From the NCBI GenBank assembly GCA_001724245.1, contig MEDX01000038.1, positions 1 to 36,411 of the forward strand: a DNA stretch of 36,411 nt. Direction: 5' to 3'. Position numbers and translations under genes: made by a program. Below, one piece after another: positions 1 to 33,425 of the stretch. The stretch is from Fonticula-like sp. SCN 57-25 (taxonomy: Eukaryota). Under the pieces are notes generated by a model that worked only from the letters and a program-made list of their open reading frames with translations, was not told the origin of the DNA and did not search any database. Each line of letters begins with the position of its first letter. The stretch's first letter is position 1.

Positions 1-1
1 G

Positions 2-997
2 GTGACGTCATTGTCGTATCAAGCTGCGTCTTGCAACATTATTGTAGGTCTTAATACTGGTCAAGTTGAACTGTTGCAAACTGATCCTCAAATTGCACCA
101 TCTGCTGCCCCTCAAGTGATACTTCCCGTCCATGAATGCGTTCGCCAGCGACTGGCAGAGGCGCAGGCAGAAGTGAAGGACATCGAGGCGGCACTTACTA
201 TGGCAAATGGTGATATTCATCTGCGTGAGCAAGAACTGAAAGAGTCGATTGCCAACCTCGAGGTCAAATGTGCGTGTCCAATATTATATCACGTGGCCAT
301 ATACTAACATGTTGCTATGATACCGGTAGTGGTGAGAGAGAAAATGGCACTAGAGCAACTGCATAATCTAAAGTCTATGGCAGAGTCACGTGATTTCGCT
401 AAGCTGACGGAGCGCCACAATGAACTGAGTGGCATAATCAATGTCTGCACGCAGACACTTGACAGCTTGACAGATTGTCTATCTGTTTCCGGATTGGAGG
501 ATCTCCGCGGCGACACCTTCAACGAATGGCTGTGCGACATTGGCATGGGCAAACTGCAAACTGCGCTAAAGGACATTGATGGCGCTACTTTGACGATGCT
601 CAGCGTGAGTGACGTCATGGACTATGACGTCACCTTCAATGATGCTGCCGCCCTTCAACTATCTGGTTATATTGCGCACTACAAACTTGGTGATGACAGC
701 GCATTTACACCGCCACGTGACAGTGTTCTATCATGGGACGAAGTGCAAACTGCAAACTGGATCAAGTCACTTGATGCTTCCTATGCTTGTCTTATCTCTG
801 CTGGCTGGCATGGTGCTGCTCTATGCTCTCTTTCCTCATCACGTGTCATTGAAGCATCCAAGGGAGCACTAAAGGCACCCGAAGCTGTAAAGTTCATTGG
901 CCTTGTAAAGGCAAAGCGAAATGAACTGGATAGCGGCAAGGCCAAGTGGGTAGTCACCTGGACAGGATCGATTCCTATTGGGAATCAGGCTCCTTAG
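2..997 (+). CDS. WD40-coiled coil-SAM-SAM protein, paralog 1 (5' part lies outside the window); exons 2-269 and 330-997
   Basis: Intron 270-329 (GTGCGT...GGTAG, phase 1) joins ORFs 2..307 and 317..997. Two SAM-like segments: FNEWLCDIGMGKLQTALKDIDGATLTMLSVSDV and SWDEVQTANWIKSL...WHGAALCSL. Colinear with the last two exons of the gene at 1943-4070, including the intron position. Confidence 0.75.
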
Positions 998-1120
998 CGT
1001 ATCTTTTTTCTTCTCTACTAAACGTGTCTTTTTTTTCTCTGCTTAGGGTAACTTTTTTCTCTCTACTTAGCGAAAGCTCGAAACTTTTTTCTTTCTACTT
1101 AGCGTAACTATTTTTTCTCT
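994..1120. repeat. Degenerate minisatellite, about 5 units of 24-32 bp (TTAGCGTAAC-T-run-CTCTCTAC-like)
   Basis: Visible units: ttagcgtatcttttttcttctctac / taaacgtgtctttttttttctctgc / ttagggtaacttttttctctctac / ttagcgaaagctcgaaacttttttctttctac / ttagcgtaactattttttctct. The first unit overlaps the stop codon of paralog 1. Confidence 0.7.
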
Positions 1121-1942
1121 GTTCTCGATTCCAATTTCGTATCAGTTGCCAGTCGTCTTGCTCTTCTTTCTTGTCTTTATTTGTTTTCCTTTCGACGGCT
1201 TTCAAACATATCCAATTCAATATAGCTAGTAATACATAAACGACCATTGATATGGCCCCATTGTGTCTATCTCTGCCTGGCGCGTGTGCGCAGTCATGGA
1301 CCATGGTGCTGGTGCAAGCGCAAAACGAATCATGTGGCAATGACGCGCGGGTAGACGTGGGCCTCTTCATGATGACAACGGTACAATGATGTCATTGAGA
1401 AAATGCGTGACGTCATATGTGCGCGGGTAGCCGACGCGCATCTTTGCCTGATCACCCGCGCGATGGGCTGATCATGGGCGTCGAAGGCGGTGGCCGATCT
1501 CACGATCAAACACGACACACAAGGGTGATCTTGCGTCGGGACGCGGCCAAATGCGCTTAAAAAACATCGAGTTCGTCATTCGTGACGATGCGCGTGATCG
1601 CGATGACGGCGCTCATGGATGCGGACACAAAGGGATGGCGTGAAACTCGTGATTGTCAGGCGGGTGAGTGTGGTCGCCAAAAGAACGACTACATATAATA
1701 ATTGGCTCACACAAACACTTATCAATGGTGGCGGCAGCCATCTTTGCAACAACAAAACAGTAACCACGGCGTCGACGCACACTGTGTTACCATGCCTGAG
1801 CAGGCTGGACATGCTGGACGGCGAGGCGTCAATTCACGTGACCATGATTTCGTCACCACGTGGCCATAATTTTTTGCTGTCAGCATCAGGTCAGCATACG
1901 CGGCACGCGGGAACCAGGGAAGCGAGAAGAGTGGTGGACGCA

Positions 1943-4070
1943 ATGGCGCATCAATTGGTCAGGAGGACGACTATTGAACCGCACACGGATTTTGTATGTC
2001 TTTCTTTGCTTTTGATGTGCTGCTGGTCTGATGCTGTCTTCTGATTGTGTTTGCAGGTGTATACGTGTGCGATTTCCCCCGACGGCACTTTGGTGGCGAC
2101 TGGCAGTCATGACAAGACACTCTGTATCACCAATATTGCCACGCGGGCAAGGGTGTACACTGTGCGGAGTGATAATTATGTACGTGTTTGTTTGTCCTTC
2201 TTTGTTCTGACACCACATCAAGGCAAGATTTATTGATGTCGCGTGGTCGCCCGACGGAACGCGTCTTGTCGCCGTGACAGGCAATGAACTTAGTGGCCGT
2301 GTCATCCAAGTCACCAACAACAATGCGCACTCGACCGTGCACTCGATCAACGCGAATGTATGCATCATGTTTGCCGCTCTTTCTTTGCTCATCCCTTGTC
2401 TAGTTGCGTGGATGCGCATTCAGTCCCAGTGGGATCGTTGCCGTCGGTGGAGATGACAAAGCAGTGACACTCTTGGATCCATTAAACAACTATTCAGTCA
2501 TTCAATCATTCACTGGATTGTATAATATTGTGCGTTCGTGAATGATGAAATGCTCGTGCTCAAACGAAAGTGTCAGGTGTTTTGTCTCGCCTTTTCACCG
2601 GATGGGAATATTCTTGCCGCGGGATGCGGTGGTGGTCACATGTACATTTATGGACTGACCAATGGCAAATGGGCGCAAGTATCATACCACAAGCATCATT
2701 CTGGTCAAGTATGATACTTATTCAATATTGCCATATCTAAAAAAATTCTTACTAGGTCTTTTCCCTCTCCTTCAGTCCCTCTGGTCGCATGCTATTGGCC
2801 GCAAGTGGTGACTGGACTGCTTCCATCTGGAATGTTCTATATGGGACCACGTGGTCATTTACTCCCCACGTGACACTCAAGGGACACACGAGTAGTGTCC
2901 GTGGCGGCGCCTTTCTCGATGACGAGTCGCACGTGATCACTGGGTCAGTTGATAATTCCCTCCTTATTTGGCGCACATCTGATGGAGTGCAAACTGCAAA
3001 CTACGAAAGTGGTGGAGTGGTGTGTCACGTTTTGTCTATTTATATCGCTCACCCATTTTGCTATGCAGGTTCTTTCATTGTCGTATCATGCTGCGTCTTG
3101 CAACATTGCACTTAGTCTTGAAGAATGTCAAGTTGAAATGTGGCAAACTTATATTGAACAATCTGGTGCCCCTCAAGTTACCCATGAAAGCATCCGCGAG
3201 CGACTATCAAAGGCTTACGCACAAGCCATTGATATCCAAATATCAATTGAAAATGCAGACAGTGGATTACGTCAGCAAATGTCACGTGAGCAGGAGCTTA
3301 AGCAATCGATCGCCGAGCTCAAGGTCAAATGTGCGTATTGGTACACATGTGATCGTCTAATTCCATACTAACAAATTCTATGTTTAGTGGCGAGTGAGAA
3401 AGAGGAACTCGAGGAACTGCAAACTCCCGAGTATATTGAACAATCACGTGATCTAAGTGAACTGATGGAGCGCCACAATGAACTGGTTGGCATCATTCGT
3501 GGCTACACGCAGACACTTGACAGCTTGACAGACAGTTTGTCTGTTTCGGGATTGGGGGACCTTCGTGGTGATTCTTTCATGGAGTGGCTCTGTAACATTG
3601 GCATGAGCAAACTGCAAACTGCACTGAAAGAGATTGATGGCGCTACTTTGACAATGCTCAACGTGAGTGACGTCATGGAATATGACGTCACCTTCAATGA
3701 TGCTGCCGCCCTTCAACTGCGTGCCTACATTGCACACTACAAGCTAAGTGATAAGAGAGACTTTGCCCCGCCACGTGACAGTGTTCCTTCATGGGATGAT
3801 ACGCAAACTGCAAACTGGATTGATTCCCTTGGTGACTCTTATGCCTGTTTATCTGATGCTGGCTGGCATGGTGCTGCTCTATGTTCCCTTTCCCCGCCAC
3901 GTGTCATTGAAGCAAGCAAGGGAGCACTCAAGGCGCCAGAGGCAGTAAAGTTTATTGGATTAGTGCGTCAAGTGCGAAGTGAAACAGACGGCGACAAGGC
4001 CACGTGGGTGACAAAGTGGAGTGGGGCAAGTACTATTGAACTGCAAGTGGAGTGGGGCAAGTACTATTGA
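1943..4070 (+). CDS. WD40 (about 7 repeats)-coiled coil-SAM-SAM protein, paralog 2, about 591 aa; exons 1943-1993, 2057-2179, 2223-2357, 2404-2529, 2577-2708, 2756-3019, 3069-3330, 3388-4070
   Basis: Seven GT-AG introns give one continuous 1776-nt ORF. WD40 repeats include VYTCAISPDGTLVATGSHDKTLCI, FIDVAWSPDGTRLV, LRGCAFSPSGIVAVGGDDKAVTL, VFCLAFSPDGNILAAG, VFSLSFSPSGRMLLAASGDWTASIW and LKGHTSSVRGGAF...TGSVDNSLLIW. These are followed by a heptad-rich segment and two SAM-like domains. The start ATG at 1943 is inferred. Confidence 0.75.
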
Positions 4071-4078
4071 ACTGCAAG
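4014..4078 (+). repeat. Perfect 31-bp tandem duplication at the 3' end of paralog 2
   Basis: AAGTGGAGTGGGGCAAGTACTATTGAACTGC occurs at 4014-4044 and again at 4045-4075. Confidence 0.95.
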
Positions 4079-4212
4079 CTGCCTAGTATCTTTCATACGT
4101 GGAACAATAACCATGTACATTTACGAGTCATGCTGTATTCAAAGTGCGATTGAAAAACAACGACAAAAAATAGCCAAATATACACAAAATCATACAATAC
4201 ATAAACCAATTT

Positions 4213-7071
4213 TCACCGCTCGTCAGCGCTCAAAAGTCGTTCCGCGACCGCCGACGCGATCCTAACCGCGTCCATCTGCACCTGCAGCAGCTCGCTCCTC
4301 TGCAAGCCACCCACCCACACTTCCGCCGCCGCCGCCGCCGCCCTCACCCCCGCCACGTGGTCAACCACCTGCTGCTGCTGCTCGACGGTCGGGTGCTCAA
4401 CGGTCGGCACTTGGTCGCCCGCAACGCTGCCCGACGGCGCCGCCGCGAGCGACTCTGCGCTATTATTGGCCGCGTCGAGGTGACTGTACATGACCGGAAT
4501 CGCCTCGTGACGCTCTGTGCGGACGCGCTGCGGACGCGTGGACGCCGACGCGGGCGTGTGCACGACGACAAACTCGACAGAGTTGCTCTCGTCAATGTGC
4601 GTCGCGCGGCGCTTGCGCTCGGTCGGAGGGGAAAAAGTGGCGGCGGGGTCGGTGGCGGCGCGCGGCCGGCGCGGGACGGCGCGAAGGGGCGATGTCGGTG
4701 TGGGGAGCGATGATGAAGGTGCATTGTCGGCAGCGGCGGCGGCGAGCACGCGGTCGCGCAGGTCGCGCGGGATGGCGTCGACGGCGGCGTTGGCAATCCA
4801 TGCGCGAAAAAGGGAAATTTCGGTGGGGCGCGCGTCAGAGAGCGCGGCGGTGACGAGCGGCGCGCAGAGGGCGGCGGGCTGCGTGAATGTGAGAAGCATG
4901 GTGAGAAATTTTAGTCGCATGGCGTCGCTTTGGATGAGGGAAAGTGACGCGGCGGCGGATGCGACGAGGCGCGCGACGGTCGTGTGGCCGTCGGAGGCGG
5001 AGGCGGCGCGCGAAATGGACCGCTCGAGAAGCGCCTGCATCGCGTCAGAGTCATATGAGGGGCGCGCGAGGTCGACAAGATCGGCGATAAGAGAAAAGCT
5101 GTAGTTTGAATCGAGCGAGTGGGCAGCGAGGACGGAAAGGAGAGAGCGGCATGCGGCGGGCGTGCAGACAGTGTCACGTGGACGGTTCAAAAAACGCTCG
5201 CAAAATGCGTTGAAAATGGCGCCGATTTCGACCGGCTGAGTGGCGCCAAGCTCATTGGCAAGCGCGCAAACAAGCAATTCAAAAGAGTTGTTGCCATCGG
5301 CCGAGTCGGGACGCGGCAGCAAAAGAAGAGTTTGTGCCATATCGGCGCGGCGATACGCCACAGTAACTGCCGCCGACGCAGCTGACATGACAGACGCTGC
5401 GGCAGCGGCCACTGGCGGCCATTGGTCGACCCCCTCTAGCATGGCAAGCCACACTAGTGCCGCCAAGCGCCGACCAGCAGAGACAGCCGCATCAGCCAAT
5501 CGCGTGGCAATATCGGCCGTCGCGGACGGTGCGATTAGCGCGAGCGAGTGCGCCACGCGGTCCGGCGGGTGTAAAAGTAAAGCAAGTGCCACGCTGCCGT
5601 CCTTGATGTGCGCGTCGACGCCAAGGTCACGAAGGATGACGTCACCCATCTCGACGGCGGCGGCGATCGAGTCGGCGCTGACGCCAGTGTCGGCAGACAT
5701 GAGCTCGCTCGGGCGCAGTCCACGAACGATTGCCTGAATGTTTGTCGATGATAGACAGCGGCGCGCGAGACGGACAAGCCAGCTTGTGAGTGATGGCGGC
5801 GCGGCCTGGGCAAGCGCGCAAAGGGCTTCGGGGGCAGCGGAAGAGTCGCGCTGCTGTAGCGCGGAGACGCCCGCGCGGCCGACCACTTCGAGTGCAATGT
5901 CGGGCTCGGCGGCGGCTGCGGCGCACGCCAGCGCGCACCACGTGTCGACGGCGACGCGCCATACGTCGGGCTCGGCCGACGACATTGAGGCCGACGGCGC
6001 TGTTGAATTGCCGTTTTGGGTCGTGCTGTTGGACGGCGACGGAACGAGAGGATTGGCGTATTGGGTCGTGCTGCCGGTTGATGGCGACCGCGCGCTGGCA
6101 AGCCAAAAGTTAAGGAGCGGCGCCATGAGCAGCGTCTGCCTGCTCTTTCTTGCAATGACGTCGGCAAAGGCGGTGATCAGGGCGCGCCAAGCGACAAAGG
6201 CGTGCGGGCTGGGCGGGTTCGCCCCAAAGGCGGGCTCGAGCGCGGCGAGCACGCCGTTGAGGGCGTCTGTGCTGCTGCAGAAAGCACCGCCTGCGAGCTT
6301 GACGGCGGCGGACCAGCCGGCGCAGAGGCGCTCAAAGTGGCCAGCGTCGGCGAGCGAGCGGCAGTGCAGACGAAAGGCGGCGGTCGCGTCCGAGGCAGCG
6401 GCGCTAATGGCGATGCGCGCTTCGTTTGAAAGAGGCAAGGCGCTCCACTTTTCGGCGACCGAGACGGCGAGGCTGCCGACGCTGTCATGGTGCGGCCACG
6501 CGAGGCATGCGGTGAGCGAGGGCGCCCACAGCACAGCGTGAGTATAATGGCGGTCGGCGTGCGTGTCGGCCACGCAGAGACAGCCCGTGATCACCGTCGT
6601 GAGATCCGGCGATGTGGCGAGCACGTTGGATAACAATTTAGAAACGTTTAAACTAATGTCCGCAGCGTGCTCGGCGGCCTTGGGATCGCCCTGGACCTGC
6701 TCGGAGGAGAGGCAGAAGAGAGCGAGGCTCTGGAGCGCGGGGGATCCGGACGAGAGATCGCTCAGCAGGACGGGGAGGAGCGAATCCCACTCTAGAGCCA
6801 TATCAAATGCAGATCCAAGGTGAAGCATGTAGCCGAGAAATACGCGCACGGCGCGCTGGAGTGCAAGGCCGGCGCCCGCGGCCCGAATGTCCCTCGACAC
6901 ACACGACAGCAGATCGGCCTTGACGGCAGATATCGCCTCGACGGCGCCCTGCCCACCTTCCCGGCATTGCAAAAGAAGAACACGGTAGGCGTCCGTGAGC
7001 GCGTCAGCGTCCGAACCGCGCGACTTTATCTGCGCGACGAGCGGCGCGAGCCACGGCGGCGCCTCTGCCAT
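4213..7071 (-). CDS. RIF1: Telomere/replication-timing regulator Rif1, about 952 aa, intronless
   Basis: ATG at 7071 (MAEAPPWLAPLVAQIKSRGSDADALTDAYRVL). HEAT-repeat Rif1_N motifs WSAAVKLAG, AFVAWRALITAF and RQTLLMAPL. SVEFVVV...IPVMYSHLD and the C-terminal helix resemble animal RIF1 as recalled. Confidence 0.8.
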   Translation of the reverse strand: MAEAPPWLAPLVAQIKSRGSDADALTDAYRVLLLQCREGGQGAVEAISAVKADLLSCVSRDIRAAGAGLALQRAVRVFLGYMLHLGSAFDMALEWDSLLPVLLSDLSSGSPALQSLALFCLSSEQVQGDPKAAEHAADISLNVSKLLSNVLATSPDLTTVITGCLCVADTHADRHYTHAVLWAPSLTACLAWPHHDSVGSLAVSVAEKWSALPLSNEARIAISAAASDATAAFRLHCRSLADAGHFERLCAGWSAAVKLAGGAFCSSTDALNGVLAALEPAFGANPPSPHAFVAWRALITAFADVIARKSRQTLLMAPLLNFWLASARSPSTGSTTQYANPLVPSPSNSTTQNGNSTAPSASMSSAEPDVWRVAVDTWCALACAAAAAEPDIALEVVGRAGVSALQQRDSSAAPEALCALAQAAPPSLTSWLVRLARRCLSSTNIQAIVRGLRPSELMSADTGVSADSIAAAVEMGDVILRDLGVDAHIKDGSVALALLLHPPDRVAHSLALIAPSATADIATRLADAAVSAGRRLAALVWLAMLEGVDQWPPVAAAAASVMSAASAAVTVAYRRADMAQTLLLLPRPDSADGNNSFELLVCALANELGATQPVEIGAIFNAFCERFLNRPRDTVCTPAACRSLLSVLAAHSLDSNYSFSLIADLVDLARPSYDSDAMQALLERSISRAASASDGHTTVARLVASAAASLSLIQSDAMRLKFLTMLLTFTQPAALCAPLVTAALSDARPTEISLFRAWIANAAVDAIPRDLRDRVLAAAAADNAPSSSLPTPTSPLRAVPRRPRAATDPAATFSPPTERKRRATHIDESNSVEFVVVHTPASASTRPQRVRTERHEAIPVMYSHLDAANNSAESLAAAPSGSVAGDQVPTVEHPTVEQQQQVVDHVAGVRAAAAAAEVWVGGLQRSELLQVQMDAVRIASAVAERLLSADER

Positions 7072-7165
7072 TGTTGCGACACCCGCACGCTGACTGTACA
7101 AATCAGAAGAATCAGAAGAAATCAGAATTACTTGATCCTCGTGGCACACGGTGACATTGCGCGAC
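7072..7165. promoter_or_regulatory. 94-bp bidirectional promoter between RIF1 and NOL6, with three AATCAG copies
   Basis: Divergent ATGs at 7071 (-) and 7166 (+). AATCAG occurs at 7101, 7110 and 7120. Confidence 0.6.
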
Positions 7166-10100
7166 ATGGGACGCAGCGCCAAGCGAGTCGCGTCGGCTCC
7201 GTCGGCGCACGCTGAAGAGGATGAGGACGCCATGCAGGGCGTCGTCGTGTCGGCCCCCCCGATGGCTGCCTCGAGCATTCAACGGTTAGGCGACGATGAT
7301 GACTATGTTGAAGAGGACGACGGCTCTGATGTCGAAGATGCCGATGAGGAGGAGGGTGAGGATGAGGAGCGGCCGTCCTCGGACCTGTACCGCCTCCCGA
7401 CCGCGGACGAGATGCGCGAGCTCAAGGAGACGTCCGAGCTGTACAAGAGCAATGTGTTTCGCCTGCAGCTGACCGAGCTCCTGTCCGAGGTTTCGGTCAA
7501 GCACGAATCGCTGTCAAAGCTCGAGGGCGCCCTGCACCGCCTCAAGGCGGATCTCGCGGTGATGCCCGAGCGCGCCGAGATGCCTGCGTCCGACGCGCAC
7601 CGCAAGCTTTCCAAGGACGGCGTCAACGTCCCCTTTGACCTCCCCGCTGTCTGCAACTACTCTCTTGCCTTCCAGCGCCCCTCTGATCTCTCCATTGTGG
7701 GCAGCTACCTCGTCAAGACGCACGCCAAGCCGCAGCTGGCGGTCGACGTGGCGCTCGAGATGCCCGCGGCGCTCTTCCAGCCCAAGGACATTCAGCACTA
7801 CCGCTACCACCACAAGCGCGCGTACTTTTTGGCGTGCGTCGCCGCGTACCTGTCCAAGCGTCCCGGCCTCGCGGCGCTTACCTTTGAGTCCTTTAACGGC
7901 GACATGTCGCGCCCCGTCCTTGTTATGCGCGCCGCAAAGGGCGACACCGCGGTGGACTTTTCCAAGACGGGCTTTCTTATTCGCCTGCTGCCGACGGTTG
8001 CCCCGGGCACGTTCAAGCTCGACCGCCTCGCGCCCGGGCGCAGCAACCTTCGCGACGGCGACACCTCTTCGTCGGCCGCGCACTACAATAATGCCATTTT
8101 GACCGACATGTTTATGAAGCACCATGTGATTGCGGTTCACTCTGCGCTTGCGGCCGTCCCTAGCATTGCCGAGGCGTCGCGCCTGCTGCGCGTGTGGCTT
8201 CGCCAGCGGCAGCTTGACCGCGTGGGCGGCATCACGGGCTTTATCGCCACCATGGTTCTCGTGCACCTGCAGCAGATTCGCAAGCTGAGCCGCGCCATGT
8301 CCGAGTTTCAGTCGTTCCGCCTCGCTCTCCAGTTCATCGCCGCGCAGGACTGGCGCGCTTCCCCCATCGCCATGCAGACATTTGCGTCGAATGAGCACAG
8401 CGACCTTTCCCCCGAGCTGGACACTTTCAGCGCCGCCTTTGACACGGTCATGCTGGACGGCAGCGGCCGCCTCAACCTGATGGCCGACGTGTCGCGCGGC
8501 ACGATGCTCTTTGTGCAAAAGGAGGCGCGCCTGGCGCTCGCCATGATTGACAGCCCCGACGACCGCTTTTCGGACCTTTTCCTGCGGCCGCTCCAGCCCG
8601 TTGCCGTGTTTGACCACCTCTTTGCGGTCGACACGACGGTCGCCGACGCGCCGCACCTCGCTCGCGCTTTAAGTGGGTCGCTCATCGTCGGCGCGCTCGC
8701 CGACCGCTGCCACCTCGTCGCGTCCTGGATCGAGCAAGGCGAGGCCGACTGCTCGTGGCCGCTCAAGTCAGCCAAGCCGTCGTCGCGCCCCGTCACCGTG
8801 TGGGGCGGCCTTGAGGTCTCGGACGCCGCCGCTGCCGGAAAGCTCGTCGTTATGGGCCCCCCCGCCGACCAGGCAGACGCTGCCGCCGCCTTCCGCCGCA
8901 CGTGGGGCTCGCGCTCCGAGCTGCGCCGCTTCCGCGACGGCTCAATCGTCGAGGCGGTCGTCTTTTCGCGGCCCGACGCTCAGCGCCACCTCGTCGTGTG
9001 CGACATGCTGACGACGCTCCTCTCGGTGCATCACCCCGCCGCCGTGCCGTCGCTGCGCTTCCGCGCGCCGCGCGCCGACGCGCTGCTCCGCCGACTTGGC
9101 CCGAACACCAACGGAAAGCGCTCGGCCGCCGGCGCCGCGCGTCCGACCTCTGCCGAGGACCCCGTGCGCGCCGCTGGTGCCGCCTTTGAGGCGCTCGCCA
9201 AGCGTGTGCGCGGCGCACGCGCGCTCCCGCTGTCGGTGCACGCCGTGCTTCCCGCGTCGGCGCACCTGCGCGGCACCGCCGTCATGCCTGCCGAGGCGCA
9301 CGCTGCGCGCCTCCGCAAGGTTCGCGGCGGCGTTCAGTCGTACGCTGCTCCCATCGAGGCCGTCATCACGTTCGAGTCGTCGACGCGCTGGCCCGACGAC
9401 GCGACTGCCGCCGACGTCATCAAGTCTGCCTTTTACGCGCGCCTCGCCGCGTCGCTGTCCGAGGACGACGGCCCGGCGACGTTTGCGTGCGTCGACTATG
9501 TTGACGTTCTTTTTGGCGGTTTTGCTTTCCGTCTTCGCATCGCGATTGAGCACCAGGTCAAGGTGATGGCGGCGTCCGATGACGCGACGCACCGCGCGCT
9601 CCTCCCTCAGTATGAGATGTGGGCTGTGCACCTTCCCGCGCACCACTCTCTTGTGCACACGATTGCGTCGTCGCACGGCGCGTACCGCCTGGCCGTGCGC
9701 CTCGCTTCGCGATGGGCGTCGAGCCACTTTTTCAGCGGCGCGCTTTTGCACGAAACGATTGAGCTGCTCATGGCGTCGGTGTTTGTGAACGCGGGCGCTT
9801 TTGCGCAGGCCGGAAGCGCCCTGAGCGCGCTCGTCCGCTTCTGGCGGCTGCTCGCCGAGACGGACTTTGAGGAGACGCCCATCACGGTCTCGCCGCTCGA
9901 GTACCCGCAGAGCCACGTGGATGAGACGTTCAAGGCGATTCGCGCGCTTCCCAACGGCGGCGGCGCTCCGCTCGTCATCTTTTCGCGCTGCGACAAGACT
10001 GGCACGCTGTTTACGTCGCAGCTGGACCGCATCATGTTTTCGCGCGTCGTCAAGTTTGCGCGCGCCGCGTGGAAGCAGGCGTGCGAGGCGCCCTTTGAAG

Positions 10101-26863: not shown

Positions 26864-26999
26864 TGCTTCTCTAAAGGCTCTTGTGGGACGACCAAGGTCT
26901 CGTTCATCGAATTGCCTCGATCCCTGTTTCTCTCTCGAATTAACTGCCTGTCTCGGAGTCGGCTTTGGCACGGCTCTTTGACCCGTTTTGAGAGAGAGA

Positions 27000-29900
27000 A
27001 TGGCCACTATGGGACCAGCCTCGTTGGTTTTGAGTGACGGATCGGTGTTTCATGGGCAATCTTTTGGCGCCCCGGTGGAAGTGACTGGCGAGGCCGTCTT
27101 CACGACCGGCATGGTCGGCTACCCCGAGTCTCTCACAGACCCTTCGTACCGCGGACAGCTTCTTGTCCTCACATACCCTCTGGTCGGCAACTACGGCATG
27201 TTTTCCGACAAGGAGGTCGACGCGAATGGCCTTCCCGTTCACCTCGAATCTGAGCGCATCCAGGTGTCTGCCCTGATTGTCGGCTCCTACTCCACCAACC
27301 ATTCTCACTGGCGCGCCGTCGAGTCCCTCGCTGCTTGGCTTCAGCGCAGCGGCGTTCCGGCTATCTGCGGTGTTGACACCCGCGCCCTCACCAAGAAGCT
27401 CCGCTCAAACGGTGTTATGCTCGGCGCGATCGTGAATGGCCACGAGCCCGTCGGCACCGCCCGCGCTTCTTCTATCGAGGACCCCAACGTTCGCAACCTT
27501 GTTGCTGAGGTTTCCACGCCGGCTCCCCGTTTGTTCCGCGCCACCAACAATATTCGCGAGGGTGAGCCCGCCCCGCGTATTTGCGCTGTTGACGTCGGTA
27601 TCAAGTACAACCAGATTCGCTGCTTCACCGAGCGCGGCTGCGACGTCGAGGTGGTTCCGTGGGACCACAACCTTTCTCAGGTTACCTGCGATGGCATTTT
27701 CCTCAGTAACGGACCTGGCGACCCGACCCGCTGCGACAAGACTATTGCCAACCTCCGCACGGTCCTGGCTGCTGCCAAGAAGCCCATCTTTGGCATTTGC
27801 CTCGGCCACCAGCTCCTTTCGCTTGCTGCCGGCGCCAAGACGCGCAAGATGCTCTACGGCAACCGCGGTCAGAATATTCCCTGCATTGATCAGGAGAGCG
27901 GCCGCTGCTACATCACCTCTCAGAACCATGGCTTCGCCGTCGATGCGGCTTCGCTCCCTGATGGCTGGAAGGAGCTTTTTGTCAACGCGAACGACGGTTC
28001 CAACGAGGGCGTGAAGCACACCACGCTTCCCTACTTTTCGGTGCAGTTCCACCCCGAGTCCTTCTGCGGCCCGCGCGATACCGAGTTCCTCTTTGATCGC
28101 TTCATCGATGCCGTTCGCGCCGCGCGCGCCCTTCCTCCGACCGCGACTCTGCAGCCGCTGCCGGTCATTCCTCACATCACGCGCCACGAGCGCGTTCGCG
28201 TCCGCAAGGTCCTCATTCTTGGATCTGGAGGCCTTTCCATCGGTCAGGCTGGCGAGTTCGACTACTCTGGTTCGCAGGCTATCAAGGCCCTTAAGGAGGA
28301 GGGTATCTACACCGTTCTCATCAACCCCAACATTGCGACCATCCAGACGAGCAAGGGTCTCGCGGACAAGGTTTACTTCTTGCCCGTCAACGCCGAGTTT
28401 GTTCGCAAGGTCATCCAATACGAGCGCCCCGACGGCATTTACGTGTCGTTTGGTGGTCAGACCGCTCTCAACGTTGGTGTGCAGCTCAAGGACGAGTTTG
28501 AGGGCCTTGGCGTCCGTGTCCTTGGTACCCCGATCGACACCGTCATCCTCACCGAGGATCGCGAGATGTTTGCTCGTGCCATGGAGTCTATTGGCGAGCG
28601 TTGCGCCGCCAGCGCTTCGGCTACCACTGTTGAGGAGGGCATGGCAGCGGGCCGCTCGATCGGCTTCCCTGTCATCGTGCGCGCTGCCTTTGCGCTTGGC
28701 GGTCTCGGCTCGGGCTTTGCCAACAACGAGGAGGAGCTTCTCGACCTGTGCCACAAGGCGTTTGCTGTCTCCCCGCAGGTTTTGATCGAGCGCTCCATGA
28801 AGGGCTGGAAGGAGATCGAGTACGAGGTGGTGCGCGATATCAACGACAACTGCATCACTGTCTGCAACATGGAGAACTTTGACCCCCTCGGTATTCACAC
28901 CGGCGACTCCATCGTGGTTGCTCCTTCGCAGACGCTCAGCGACCGCGACTACCATCGTCTCCGCACGACGGCCATCAATGTTATTCGCCACCTTGGTGTC
29001 GTTGGTGAGTGCAACATCCAGTATGCCGTCAACCCTGACTCGGACGAGTATTGCATTATTGAGGTCAACGCCCGCCTTTCTCGGTCGTCTGCGCTTGCCT
29101 CAAAGGCCACCGGCTACCCGCTCGCCTTTGTGGCGGCCAAGCTCGGTCTCCACATTCCGCTCACCGAGATCAAGAACAGCGTGACCCGCTCGACCTGCGC
29201 TTGCTTTGAGCCTTCGCTCGATTACTGCGTCGTCAAGGTCCCCCGCTGGGATCTGCGCAAGTTCACCCGCGTGTCGACTCGCATTGCGTCGGCCATGAAG
29301 TCGGTCGGTGAGGTCATGGCTATTGGCCGCACCTTTGAGGAGGCTATCCAGAAGGCCATTCGTGCCGTCGATCCGTCGTTCCAGGGCTTTGAGAAGAACA
29401 ACATCTGCACCGCGTCGGACGAGGCCCTCTCGGTGCCCACCGATGCCCGTCTCTTTGCCGTCGCCAACGCGATGCACAGCGGCTACACGAACGAGCGTAT
29501 CTGGGAGTTGACCAAGATTGATCATTGGTTCCTCGATAAGCTTCGCAACATTGTCAACATGGACAACACGATTTCGGGCCTGTCGGTCAACCTCGCCGAT
29601 TTCCCTACCGACCTTCTGCGCCGCGCCAAGCAGCTCGGCTTTGGCGACCCGCAAATCTCGCGCTGCATCAAGTCGACGGCGCTTGCTGTGCGCCAGCTCC
29701 GCCTCGAGCGCGGCGTCGTCCCTGTCGTCAAGCAGATCGACACCGTTGCCGCCGAGTTCCCCGCGCACACCAACTACCTGTACCTTACGTACAACGGCAC
29801 CGAGAACGACGTTGAATTCCGCGATCAGGGTGTTATCGTGCTTGGCTCCGGTGTCTACCGCATCGGTAGTTCGGTCGAGTTCGACTGGTGCGCCGTGCGC

Positions 29901-32900
29901 TGCATTCGCACCCTCCGCGCCAACGGCTTCAAGACGGTCATGATCAACTACAACCCCGAGACTGTCTCGACCGACTACGATGAGGCCGACCGTCTCTACT
30001 TTGAGAACATTATCCCGGAGACTGTGCTCGACATCTACACTCTCGAGCAGTCTAGCGGCGTGGTTGTTTCGATGGGTGGCCAGACCCCCAACAACATTGC
30101 GCAGCTCCTGGACCGCCAGCACGTCAACATTCTCGGCACCACCGCCGATATGATCGACACCGCCGAGAACCGCTACAAGTTCTCCCGTATGCTGGACAAG
30201 ATTGGTGTCGACCAGCCCGAGTGGCGCGAAATTACCTCCATGGATGACTCTCGCGCGTTCTGCCGCAAGGTTGGCTACCCCGTCCTTGTCCGCCCCTCCT
30301 ACGTGCTCTCCGGCGCGGCCATGACGGTCGTCTTTACTGAGGCCGACCTCGAGGGTTACCTCAACAAGGCCACTGCGGTTTCGCCCGAACACCCCGTCGT
30401 CATTTCCAAGTTCATCGAGAACGCCAAGGAAATTGAGGTTGACGCTATTGCGCGCCAGGGCGAGGTTGTGATGCACATCGTTGCTGAGCACGTCGAGAAC
30501 GCCGGTGTCCACTCTGGTGATGCCACCCTTGTTCTTCCGCCGCAGGATCTGGACGCGGAGACTGTCGCCAAGATTGAGATTGCCACTCGCAAGATTGGAA
30601 ATGCGCTCAACGTGACTGGCCCCTACAACATTCAGTTCATCGCCAAGGATGGACAGATTAAGGTGATTGAGTGCAACCTCCGCGCTTCGCGCTCAATGCC
30701 CTTTGCCTCAAAGGTGCTGGATGTCGATCTTATCGAGATGGCCACGCGCGTCATGATGGGTCTCCCTGTGACCCCGTACCCCCCGACGAACGTGGATTAC
30801 GTCGCTGTCAAGGTGCCGCAGTTCTCGTTCTCCCGCCTCAGCGGAGCCGACCCTGTGCTTGGTGTCGAGATGGCCTCCACCGGCGAGGTTGCGTGCTTTG
30901 GCAAGGACAAGTACGAGGCGTATCTCAAGGCGCTGCTGTCGACCGCCTTTGTGCTTCCGAAGAAGAACATTCTCCTTTCGATTGGCTCGTACAAGGAGAA
31001 GGTGGAGATGTTTGCCAGCGTCGAGCGCCTTCATCAGATGGGCTACAAGCTCTTTGGCACGGCGGGAACGGCCGACTACTACCGCGAGCAAGGCTTGCCT
31101 ATTACCACGCTCGAGTTGATGGGTGAGAATTCTGGTGAGGGTCTGCGCGAGGAGTACAGCTTGACCCACGCTCTTGCCAACAAGCACATTGACCTCTACA
31201 TCAACCTTCCGTCGAACAATTCGTACCGCCGCCCGGCCAACTACATGTCTGCCGGTTACGTGTCTCGCCGCATGGCCGTTGATTTCTCGATTCCCCTTAT
31301 CACCAACGTCAAGTGTGCCAAGCTCTTTGTCGAGTCGATTGCTCGCAAGGATGACCTTCCCATCCACATGTATGACTACAAGACCTCTTCGGCCACCGCT
31401 CTTCTGCCGGGCCTTATCGATCTCAACATGCACCTCGCCGAAGCGACCGAGTCGGCCATTGCCAAGGTCACGTCGGACGCGCTTGCTGGCGGTTTCACGG
31501 CCGTGGGCCTTTCCGGTATCAGCGCCAAGGACATTGCTGCTGTTCGTGCGGCTGTTCGCGCTGGTGCTGTCTGCGACGTTGCTCTTTTGCCCGAGTCGGA
31601 TGGCGCTTCTGTGGACGCTCTGTCTATGGCTGTTGCCTACCCGGCCGCCAACGTGGCTTCCATGGCGAAGCTGACTGCTGCTTTTGCCGCTTGGCCGACC
31701 ACTGGTGCTCCCCTCGTGAGCGCTGTTGAGGGTGCAGAGCTCGCTGCCATGATTTTCCTGGCCTCGGCGGCTCAGCGGGCCATCCACTTTACTGGTGTTA
31801 AGCGTGCCGTTGATCTTGTCGTTATTCGCGCTGCCAAGGAGCGCGGCCACAAGGTGACATGCGACGTTTCTATTGGTGCTCTCTTCTTTGCCCAGGACTC
31901 GTCCGATGCTGCCGCTGAAGAGGTGGAGGCGATGTGGAGCTCCCTCGATGTAATTGATTGCTTCACCGCTTCCTCTGAGACTGTCGCCACCGCCTTGTCA
32001 TTGTTGATGACGGCTGTCGCTGCTGGCCGCCTGACCATCAACGATATCATCGAGCGCCTGCACGTTGCGCCGACGCGCATCTTTGGCCTCCCTGTTCAGA
32101 CCGACACCTTTGCCATTGTTGAGGTCGATCGGGACGTCAGCGCTGTTCCCAATAACGTGGTCCCCAGCGTCATCGGAGGGCGCTCAAAGCTGTGCGGCTA
32201 TGTGAGCCGCGTTGTCGTGCGTGGTGTTTCGACTATTCTGGACGCCAAGCATGTCAGCGTTTCGCGCGAGAGCGTGGCCCCCGTCGAGATCCGTCGTGTT
32301 GCTGCCACTGTTCCCCATGATGCTGCGGTTCCTGCGGCCAACCTCGCCACGAGCTCGCCGATGCTTCCGCCGGCCGCGGCGGTTGAGAGCCCTGCCCGCC
32401 GCCCTGCTGTCGCCCCTGCGACCGCTCTCCAGGCTGCGGCTCCGTCGACGGCGGTTGTGGCTTCCTCGGTGGCCCCTGCCGTTGCTACCTCGCCGTTCCT
32501 TCTGCGCTCTGTTCTCAACGTTGGGCAGTGGTCCCGCAACGATTTGCATGCGGTCTTTGGCGTCGCGCACGAGCTCAAGACGCGTCTTGAGCGCAAGTCG
32601 GGCGTCCTCGACTCTCTCCGCGGCAGGGTGCTCTGCAACCTGTTCTACGAGCCCTCCACGCGCACTTCGGCCTCTTTCGAGACTGCGATGAAGCGTCTTG
32701 GTGGCGAGGTCCTTAGCGTCAACGCCATCTCCTCTTCGGTCGCCAAGGGCGAGTCTCTTGCGGACACTGTTCGCACTCTCGAGAACTACGCCGACGTGAT
32801 TGTCATGCGTCACCCGGCCCCTGGCAGCGTTGCCGAGGCCGCCAAGGTTTCTCGCATTCCTATCATCAACGCCGGCGACGGCATTGGCGAGCACCCCACG

Positions 32901-33425
32901 CAGGCTATGCTCGACGTTTACACCATCCGTGAGGAGCTGGGCACCGTCAACGGCCTTGACATCACTATTGCCGGCGACCTGACGAACGGCCGCACGGTCC
33001 ACTCGCTTGTGCGCCTGCTCGCCCACTACAACGTGCGCATCCACTACGTCCCGGCGTCGCCTGCCCTTGGCATGCCGGAGGAGATCGTGCGCGAGCTCGC
33101 CGCTGCCAACATCAGCCAGACCGTGCACTCTTCGCTCGAGGACGTCATTGGCTTCACTGATGTTCTCTACATGACGCGCATCCAGAAGGAGCGCTTCGAG
33201 AGCGAGGCCGAGTATGACCGTGCTCGTTTTGCGGCCAAGCTCGTCGTCACTCCCGACCTTATGATCCGTGCCAAGGAAAAGATGATTGTCATGCACCCGC
33301 TGCCTCGCGTTGACGAGATCGACAAGGCTGTCGATCTTGACGCGCGTGCCGCTTACTTTAGACAGATGCGCTACGGACTGTACGTGCGTATGGCCCTTCT
33401 CTTGCTGGTCTTTGGCAAGGAATGA
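27000..33425 (+). CDS. URA2: Multifunctional pyrimidine biosynthesis protein (GATase-CPSase-pseudo-DHOase-ATCase), about 2141 aa, intronless
   Basis: [33 protein letters not shown] glutaminase triad, [13 protein letters not shown], two ATP-grasp halves, MGS domain, ATCase FYEPSTRT and MHPLPR. The DHO-like region has IDLNMHL in place of IDxHVH and lacks TDHAPH. Confidence 0.96.

Follow-up and report, generated by a model that had tools for sequence, protein, structure and literature searches.

A tandem pair of WD40-helix-SAM-SAM genes in a Fonticula-like eukaryote and a diversifying family of candidate recognition or adaptor proteins

The start of contig MEDX01000038.1 (assembly GCA_001724245.1), from Fonticula-like sp. 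SCN 57-25, carries two paralogous genes arranged head to tail on the + strand between positions 2 and 4070. Throughout, 'the window' refers to the whole 36,411-nucleotide stretch of this contig that was analysed; gene 1 is truncated by the start of the window and gene 2 is complete. The two genes encode proteins in which a WD40 propeller is joined through long helices to a pair of SAM domains, and their family is large, lineage-restricted and quick to diversify; we consider the chances about even that its members are non-catalytic proteins of recognition or adaptor type with a conflict-related role. Here, we describe the genes, their relatives and the selection that has shaped them, compare them with known systems, and weigh other explanations.

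The predicted splice model of gene 2 contains eight exons (1943-1993, 2057-2179, 2223-2357, 2404-2529, 2577-2708, 2756-3019, 3069-3330 and 3388-4070), which together give 1776 nt and 591 aa, and seven introns, all GT-AG and 43-63 nt long. Gene 1 is represented by exons 2-269 and 330-997, and its intron occupies a phase-1 position matching that of the last intron of gene 2 (3331-3387). An earlier annotation made without database searches, referred to here as the sequence-only reading, had proposed both the 591-aa product and the shared intron positions, and the eight-exon model and the equivalent introns at 270-329 and 3331-3387 agree with it. The features of the locus are given below with the evidence for each, including, where available, the ratio of nonsynonymous to synonymous divergence (dN/dS).

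2-269, + strand: gene 1 exon homologous to exon 7 of gene 2, encoding blade 7, linker and first coiled-coil part (splices at gene 2's phase-1 position; aligns to gene 2 residues 278-365)
270-329, + strand: last intron of gene 1, 60 nt, GT-AG, containing TACTAAC (from the sequence; position and phase as gene 2 3331-3387)
330-997, + strand: last exon of gene 1, encoding the second coiled-coil part, SAM1 and SAM2, with the stop codon at 995-997 (alignment to gene 2; SAM_1 E 0.022)
993-1120, + strand: five copies of a 24-bp T-rich tandem repeat, from the gene 1 stop codon (Tandem Repeats Finder: period 24, 5.0 copies, 69% matches)
998-1942, + strand: spacer between the paralogs, presumed promoter of gene 2, low in depth and apparently unique (without family homology; GC 0.49)
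1943-3146, + strand: seven-bladed WD40 propeller of gene 2, residues 1-303, exons 1-7 (gene model, Pfam WD40 and blade register; exon structure recurs in paralog loci)
1994-2056, 2180-2222, 2358-2403, 2530-2576, 2709-2755 and 3020-3068, + strand: propeller introns (gene 2 model)
3147-3188, + strand: linker between propeller and helices, residues 304-317 (family alignment)
3189-3557, + strand: long helical, presumed coiled-coil region, residues 318-421, split by the phase-1 intron 3331-3387 (AlphaFold2 helix and weak profile matches; dN/dS 0.33-0.47)
3555-3743, + strand: SAM1, model residues 56-118, protein residues 421-483 (structure search; dN/dS 0.10-0.16)
3774-3998, + strand: SAM2, model residues 129-203, protein residues 494-568 (structure search; dN/dS 0.20-0.24)
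4005-4019, + strand: conserved W-x3-W tail motif after SAM2, model W206 and W210 (alignment of 32 relatives)
4014-4078, + strand: perfect 31-bp tandem duplication (Tandem Repeats Finder: period 31, 2.1 copies, 100% matches)

The layout of gene 2 is a WD40 propeller, with seven blades in the spliced model, followed by a linker, long helices and two SAM domains. The Pfam WD40 profile, for which the cut-off is 27 bits, is significant in two exons, scoring 50.1 bits (E 3e-13) in exon 6 and 27.1 bits in exon 2; SAM_1 falls below its cut-off by sequence alone (E 0.013, 16.2 against 23 bits). Structure prediction covered the 226-aa protein encoded by exon 8, and the AlphaFold2 model obtained from 32 aligned relatives has a predicted local distance difference test score (pLDDT) of 95.6 and a predicted template modelling score (pTM) of 0.87. 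When this model was used for a structure search with VIA-align, SAM2 (model residues 130-202) matched the SAM domain of CNK2 (Z 10.5, root-mean-square deviation (rmsd) 1.9 Å, 71 residues) and those of PHC3, Scm and SARM1 (Z 9-9.6), and SAM1 (model residues 59-118) matched the SAM domains of tankyrase-1 (Z 8.3, rmsd 1.2 Å, 60 residues) and Ste50 (Z 7.6); judged by their titles, SAM or PNT domains account for 44 of the 50 best structural matches. A Foldseek search returned no match for the exon 8 model in the PDB at E ≤ 1e-3; its top rows were the tandem SAMs of SARM1 (E 0.018, prob 0.97) and liprin (E 0.033), for which joint superposition is poor (rmsd 9-13 Å). The family profile has its best PDB match in liprin-beta-1 SAM123 (3tad_C, E 2.6e-6), and an Atlas look-up of exon 8 gave generic SAM clusters only, with scores ≤ 0.83. 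The SAM assignment thus follows from the VIA-align matches and the liprin-beta-1 profile match, and two SAM folds are confirmed in the predicted model of exon 8.

Ahead of SAM1, AlphaFold2 places a helix of 40 residues (model residues 13-52), and the helical region gives weak profile matches to the coiled coils of ATG16, prefoldin and SlyX; judged from these two observations, the region is probably a coiled coil. A homo-oligomer prediction for two copies of the exon-8 protein scored 0.02 against a mark of 0.32 and counts neither way. The linker is short in the window (a few residues) and expanded in some paralogs by in-frame Ala/Pro/Gln-rich tandem repeats of widely varying length, reaching ~70-85 residues in loci L007 (~1400-1620) and L012 (~440-690); expanded linkers are also found in proteins P0003 and P0006. 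Pfam scans, which covered gene 2 and 29 relatives, detected no catalytic or other further domain in gene 2 or the 20 relatives that are close, no NTPase (NACHT/NB-ARC) match above cut-off in gene 2, and no ARM or TIR domain in gene 2 or the 29 scanned relatives. Nor is there room for a hidden N-terminal domain in gene 2, where blade 1 begins after only 17 residues and gene 1 ends 945 bp upstream; the same gene start is seen in paralog loci L002 and L022, and spacers are likewise short in L010 and L023. The propeller with two SAMs and no catalytic domain that the sequence-only reading described is therefore what Pfam WD40, the exon-8 model and the structure search agree on, and the AlphaFold check that it proposed (pLDDT 95.6 for exon 8) gave two SAMs and not a C-terminal region of another fold.

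Relatives of the two genes are numerous. A DNA scan of metagenome contigs, using a pattern built from the 11 closest rows of the relatives' alignment, gave 347 pattern matches from which 25 further loci were confirmed, 21 from one assembly and 4 from another, all of them different copies with 50-76% identity to exon 8. At the protein level, a profile search (8000 scored candidates, 100-784 aa) recovered at least 148 clusters at 90% identity with E ≤ 1e-3; among the matches listed (120 of 148), all have E < 1e-80 and are 57-79% identical to the last exon of gene 2. These listed relatives, which include the last-exon open reading frame (ORF) of gene 1 as the window's own entry (P0103), all come from metagenome sources, and one is called 'hypothetical protein', with no other names among them. 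A full HMMER pass through 1.84 billion proteins, each representing a cluster at 50% identity, yielded only 35 relatives with E ≤ 1e-3, and the taxonomic reach of the family is therefore narrow. A profile search of proteins of 785-2240 aa found none, which is weak evidence against large fused forms.

Exon order and short introns recur in every locus whose contig extends upstream. Head-to-tail neighbours, as in the window, are present in three of the 25 loci (L004, L010 and L023), and other copies adjoin unrelated ORFs (flanks judged by eye); the family is dispersed, with small tandem arrays. Reading frames are preserved: a stop is reached in 22 models, and 21 of these terminate at the homologous C-terminus, leaving aside only the mis-modelled L009. 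Contigs of four sequencing runs placed on window positions 1-4100 at ≥85% likeness amounted to 1842, 929, 186 and 378 pieces, and in run X1 the summed contig depth is 440-1820 over coding bins versus 6-15 over the spacer (998-1942), a contrast that is not a copy number but is consistent with many similar copies. The proposal of a multi-copy, tandem family is hence upheld as to copy number, by 25 extra loci with the same exon structure wherever contigs reach upstream and by at least 148 clusters, and only partly as to the tandem arrangement; instead of two copies under uniform purifying selection, there are many loci with uneven dN/dS.

The two genes of the window are 67% identical over 301 aligned residues: identity is 83% in SAM1 (65 aa), 62% in blade 7, and 49% in the linker and first coiled-coil part. 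The sequence-only reading had given ~86% over 70 aa for SAM1 and about one half for the last-blade/coiled-coil exon. Across the family, dN/dS was obtained from pairwise Nei-Gojobori counts on codon alignments of predicted splice models, with L009 left out of the selection, hotspot, segment-distance and tree comparisons (its exon 7-8 junction is mis-modelled) and with gaps in place of the parts whose junctions were imperfect (exon 6-7 in L007; exons 5-6 in L008 and in L019). On the same 4-6 sequences, dN/dS is 1.09-1.31 in blade 1, 0.79-0.86 in blade 2, 0.56-0.72 in blades 3-4, 0.52-0.53 in blades 5-6, 0.33-0.47 in the helices, 0.10-0.15 in SAM1 and 0.20 in SAM2, and SAM1 is the most conserved part of the family. 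A variable sensor end and a conserved SAM end had been anticipated from the two genes alone, and the gradient from ~1.1-1.3 in blade 1 to 0.10-0.15 in SAM1 bears this out.

The variation in the propeller is concentrated on one face. The top-face contact positions of each WD40 blade, R1, R1-2 and D-1, can be read off the sequence: R1 comes after the first bulky residue of strand a, with R1-2 two residues ahead of it, while D-1 stands in front of a conserved Asp (as set out in excerpts of Wu et al. 2012, PMC3419727). Seven blades give 21 such hotspots, 20 of which could be assessed (R1-2 of blade 1, covered by fewer than four sequences, was dropped). Their mean pairwise amino-acid difference is 0.916, a value reached by none of 20000 random site sets (0/20000), compared with 0.368 at the 261 other propeller sites, and of the 20 propeller sites that vary most, 13 are hotspots. 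Among the four sequences closest to one another (six pairs), the proportion of nonsynonymous differences (pN) at hotspots is 0.639 and the proportion of synonymous differences (pS) is 0.314 at hotspot codons and 0.231 at other propeller sites; hotspot pN minus regional pS has a bootstrap 95% range of 0.32-0.48, and propeller dN/dS in these sequences is 3.5 at hotspots and 0.50 elsewhere. The closest pair, L002 and L022, shows the same over 28 top-face positions (the 21 hotspots plus one per blade), with pN 0.45 against a background pS of 0.10. Residues flanking the hotspots are nearly invariant, for example T-G-S before D-1 of blade 6. These codon comparisons show the pattern expected when positive selection diversifies the presumed ligand-binding face, and the dN/dS analysis of the propeller surface that the sequence-only reading had proposed thus yields pN > pS at the top-face contact positions.

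Copies also seem to trade segments. Nucleotide distances in the second helix segment do not follow those in the SAM domains (Spearman 0.03 and -0.03 over 36 pairs, the value of 0.03 being that against SAM1), even though the second helix segment and SAM1 are adjacent in one exon; SAM1 and SAM2 distances correlate at 0.61. In an approximately unbiased (AU) test on 15 sequences, neither alignment accepts the tree of the other segment: p is 0.0036 for the SAM tree on the helix alignment and 8e-79 for the helix tree on the SAM alignment, the latter value being inflated by the poor resolution of the helix tree. These discordances indicate segment exchange between copies, that is, a probable mosaic ancestry, and homogenisation of the 5' part by such exchange would explain the uneven synonymous divergence between propeller and SAM exons discussed below.

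In the mechanism that we propose, positive selection would have driven apart the top-face contact residues of each propeller, so that different copies may bind different ligands on this face. A linker of variable length and long helices, presumed to form a coiled coil, would join the propeller to the tandem SAM module, and the helices may dimerise or oligomerise the protein. The SAM pair, under strong purifying selection, would couple every copy to one shared partner or higher-order assembly, and the output could be either a signal-concentrating polymer or the marking of the bound ligand by a U-box ligase that has docked; tandem duplication, together with segment exchange between copies, would supply new variants. 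A family of many members, in which the binding face is hypervariable and the signalling end stays constant, has by analogy the pattern of receptor repertoires for non-self recognition or biotic conflict. A bolder version, which we regard as rather unlikely, is a NOD-less repertoire in which a hundred or more WD40 sensors feed one hub of coiled coil and tandem SAMs, amounting to an undescribed class of eukaryotic innate recognition of non-self or parasites; such a hub would polymerise cooperatively to signal, or would recruit an effector that bears a SAM and is shared by all copies, for example a U-box ligase.

The nearest known architecture is that of WDSUB1, which, as excerpts of Marin 2010 (PMC3087547) give it, consists of seven WD40 repeats, a SAM domain and a U-box. 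Both start with a seven-blade WD40 propeller followed by SAM; the family differs in having two SAMs and a ~100-residue helical region where WDSUB1, as described in the same excerpts, has one SAM. Gene 2 ends ~23 residues after SAM2 without a U-box, and Pfam scans gave no U-box match in gene 1, in gene 2 or in any of the 20 close relatives (29 relatives scanned in all). The family moreover comprises more than 100 diverging copies, in contrast to WDSUB1, a single, often-lost gene. Two of the 32 aligned relatives, the distant P0032 and P0035, do have a U-box downstream of the SAM pair (37.8 and 32.5 bits; cut-off 21.4), and other distant relatives (P0010, P0023 and P0039) keep upstream WD40 blades. 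The family is best seen, by its architecture, as a U-box-less, two-SAM offshoot of a WDSUB1-like stock, and descent from a WD40-SAM-U-box ancestor with loss of the U-box is the most likely history. The architecture is accordingly less foreign than the sequence-only reading supposed when it did not recognise it, the WD40-SAM part being the core of WDSUB1 (excerpts of PMC3087547) and two distant relatives having the U-box as well; at the same time the genes do not appear to be orthologues of a known conserved gene: the searches returned no named protein, and the missing U-box sets the architecture apart from that of WDSUB1. A literature search that did not extend to subscription journals found no paper on a WD40-coiled-coil-SAM-SAM family.

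The relationship to WDSUB1 also supplies the strongest competing explanation, namely that the ancestral protein has been split. The copies would then be interchangeable substrate receptors of a ubiquitin ligase, in which the propeller picks the substrate and the SAM pair docks onto a separate SAM-SAM-U-box protein, in parallel to the expanded F-box and DCAF families, and they could still serve in conflict with parasites. In its favour, P0032 and P0035 have the same SAM pair followed by a U-box above the Pfam cut-off, and a WDSUB1-like gene of Monosiga has two SAMs and a U-box and, in excerpts of Marin 2010 (PMC3087547), no WD40. The low dN/dS of SAM1 (0.10-0.16), the most constrained part, is as expected of a shared docking surface, and close members have no output domain of their own. 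Against this, the SAM-SAM-U-box forms are not tied to the window's own organism, P0032 and P0035 are just 23% identical to the window protein and may have unseen upstream WD40 exons, which would make them fused and not split, and the likeness to animal WDSUB1 is one of domain layout. We regard a split WDSUB1 as possible, if somewhat unlikely.

Other systems share single elements with the family. SARM1 and TIR-1 likewise have two adjacent SAMs preceded by a helix, SAM2 matches their SAM domains with Z 9.1, and the SARM1 SAM pair forms an octameric ring that organises an immune and cell-death effector (excerpts of review PMC10252437); the family, however, has no ARM and TIR domains, and its two SAMs do not superpose jointly on those of SARM1 (rmsd 11-13 Å over ~150 columns). 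Liprin-alpha and liprin-beta combine coiled-coil or helical regions with tightly packed tandem SAMs, and liprin-beta-1 (3tad_D) is the only structural match listed that spans both SAMs (Z 7.6, 134 residues, rmsd 4.9 Å). Liprins differ in having three SAMs, compared with two in the family (only two fit between residue 421 and the stop), in the absence of an upstream WD40 propeller, and in being single-copy synaptic scaffolds instead of a diversifying family. In F-box/WD40 and DCAF receptors, the top face of the propeller is the specificity surface and is joined to a small constant docking module. The family resembles them in this division of labour, but its docking module is coiled-coil-SAM-SAM and not an F-box or DDB1-binding helix, and its link to a ligase is putative.

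A parallel in evolutionary pattern is provided by fungal NOD-like receptors (NLRs) of the HET-E, HET-D and NWD type, which are also multi-copy and whose top-face WD40 positions are hypervariable and positively selected (abstracts of PMC4986451 and PMC12222747). The family differs from these in the absence of a NACHT/NB-ARC module and of an N-terminal effector domain, and in its C-terminal SAM pair, which has no NLR counterpart. Internal repeat homogenisation of the HET-E kind was considered and rejected: blade-to-blade identity within gene 2 averages 0.27 (range 0.10-0.39, 21 pairs), and diversity in the family lies between genes, not between the repeats of one gene. The reading of the two genes as a diversifying receptor family thus stands with respect to copy number, the variable sensor, the conserved SAMs and selection on the top face, and falls with respect to a wholly unknown architecture and to the HET-E-type propeller, given blades only 27% identical and no NOD module; the immune or non-self role stays putative.

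Several points weigh against a recognition role. No effector or catalytic domain was found in any of the 20 close relatives (0/20; 29 proteins scanned), so a signalling output would need a separate partner. Diversified propeller faces occur in ordinary substrate-receptor families too. Oligomerisation through the SAMs is a prediction by analogy, and as tandem SAMs variously form closed intramolecular units, rings, fibres or docking sites for partners, the fold alone does not establish polymerisation (excerpts of review PMC10252437). The copies were pooled from metagenome contigs and not from one genome, and some could be orthologs from related strains. The dN/dS values are pairwise counts on predicted splice models and not site-model likelihoods, blades 1-4 are covered by 4-7 sequences, and the blade register was set by eye after viewing the alignment, with D-1 of blade 2 ambiguous. 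Synonymous divergence is ~0.4-0.5 in propeller exons versus ~1.0-1.2 in SAM exons, and this lower value raises propeller dN/dS. Finally, the runs matching window positions 1-4100 are bioreactor, wastewater, aquatic and fungus metagenomes, with no RNA run among them.

This last point would also fit an ordinary scaffold family that drifts after duplication, in which the variable sites are unconstrained loops, the copies are redundant or decaying, and nothing is recognised. Base composition points the same way. The guanine plus cytosine (GC) content is 0.47-0.49 in positions 1-4000 versus 0.52-0.69 in all later 1-kb bins except one, and GC at third codon positions (GC3) is 0.47-0.56 in coding sequences of the family (0.48 at this locus) versus 0.70-0.83 in five neighbouring ORFs, a step that confirms the earlier remark that the composition is unlike that of the neighbouring housekeeping genes. 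Short intergenic gaps have a GC of 0.33-0.40, pooled non-ORF sequence 0.51 and family introns 0.40. The low GC of the genes therefore reflects an absence of codon bias, with GC3 near the level of non-coding background, and is not evidence of a foreign origin; it fits low expression, and dN/dS near 1 across blades 1-2 as a whole is likewise what drift predicts. Drift does not, however, account for a hotspot pN (0.64) well above the local pS (0.23-0.31), for the strong conservation of hotspot-adjacent residues and of the SAM pair, for frames that stay open to the homologous stop in 21 of the 22 stop-reaching models, or for introns that keep GT-AG and their positions across copies, and we think it quite improbable.

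Repeat-induced point mutation (RIP) leaves TpA/ApT above ~0.89 and (CpA+TpG)/(ApC+GpT) below ~1.03. With values of 0.56 and 1.37 in positions 1-4100, and 0.53 and 1.19 in the rest of the window, RIP was rejected as the cause of the low GC, and a horizontal origin is not supported, as the GC matches non-coding sequence of the same window. That the genes are foreign or selfish, whether acquired horizontally, spread as cargo of a mobile element or altered in composition by RIP, is most improbable: the sharp compositional step at ~4.1 kb, the seven introns of gene 2 next to long uninterrupted neighbouring ORFs and the many dispersed copies would fit it, but Pfam scans, with no search made for terminal repeats, show neither a transposase nor an integrase nor a reverse transcriptase, copies at many loci adjoin ordinary-looking unrelated ORFs (flanks judged by eye), GC fits the window's own non-coding sequence and short intergenic gaps (0.33-0.51), and the RIP indices are not RIP-like and are similar to those of the rest of the window.

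A number of short DNA motifs are enriched in the family, with counts across paralogs that are non-independent. The palindrome CACGTG has 14 of its 27 window sites in the first 4.1 kb, between 290 and 4006 (3.4 versus 0.40 per kb elsewhere), and 134 sites in 44.8 kb of paralog loci, where it is spread across all three codon frames (46/39/25), and TCACGTGA occurs 50 times in the first 4.1 kb of the window and the paralog loci versus 3.5 expected. Enrichment of these two motifs suggests constraint at the DNA or RNA level. A tandem heptamer, GCAAACT, is present in 2.1-2.4 copies at 549-564, 744-759, 2988-3002, 3607-3623 and 3803-3817, and the 13-mer GCAAACTGCAAAC has five occurrences in 1-4100, a single one in the remaining 32 kb and 42 in the paralog loci. 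The reading frame of GCAAACTGCAAAC differs by site (K-L-Q-T versus Q-T-A-N), and therefore the DNA motif rather than a peptide seems to be kept; the GCAAACTGCAAAC and GCAAACT sites might mark exchange points between copies. A palindrome resembling the cAMP response element, TGACGTCA, is found six times in the first 4.1 kb (sites include 3-10, 606-613, 1398-1405 and 3666-3673), twice in the remaining 32 kb and 13 times in paralog loci.

Further observations concern the structure of the genes and their ends. Five of the six propeller introns, those of blades 1, 3, 4, 5 and 7, are in phase 0 and immediately precede the first bulky residue of strand a; the blade-2 intron lies two codons upstream of that point, and blades 5 and 6 share one exon; this layout of nearly one exon per blade fits an origin by duplication of blade exons. 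Downstream of SAM2, W206 is invariant and W210 at least 90% conserved in the 32 aligned relatives, U-box forms included. The 31-bp duplication shifts the frame of gene 2 and replaces the family ending I-E-x-Q-A-x by a longer, odd tail with its stop at 4068-4070; it may be real or an assembly artefact. The 24-bp T-rich repeat that begins at the stop codon of gene 1 could be a terminator or an element of the 3' end. Pieces of the spacer (1076-1902) were recovered from fungus-metagenome runs (469 nt with one mismatch and one gap in X5; two 151-nt contigs in X6 that match it perfectly), and near-identical pieces occur in bioreactor and aquatic runs too, from which it follows that the same or a very close organism is present in several sample kinds.

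The gene content of the window is eukaryotic. Genes beyond 4.2 kb are long ORFs with few or no introns and include Nrap, a malate/lactate dehydrogenase, a MARK-type kinase with KA1, a myosin head, an aldehyde dehydrogenase and a fusion of carbamoyl-phosphate synthase (CPSase) and aspartate carbamoyltransferase (ATCase). This last is a 2147-aa ORF (26982-33422) that joins glutamine amidotransferase, CPSase and ATCase. A dihydroorotase domain is expected between the MGS-like and ATCase parts of such fusions; here the ~400 residues between MGS-like (ends at 1441) and ATCase (starts at 1842) have no Pfam match at E ≤ 1e-5. Converging on gene 2 is a 1021-aa ORF on the - strand (4216-7278, GC3 0.74), which has no Pfam match and in an Atlas look-up gave generic helical-repeat clusters only, with a score of 0.90 and low recognition. 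Rfam and tRNA scans of the window found no match.

Large repertoires that combine a hypervariable surface with a constant signalling end are a hallmark of innate recognition systems, and to our knowledge almost all known intracellular repertoires are built around a NOD/STAND NTPase. The same evolutionary signature is seen here on another chassis, a WD40 propeller joined by helices to a tandem SAM pair. The 21 hotspot positions predict a specificity surface and the SAM pair predicts a common partner. If the role of the family is recognition, it would widen the set of architectures usable as immune-like sensors and would provide a functional context for the poorly understood WDSUB1 lineage.

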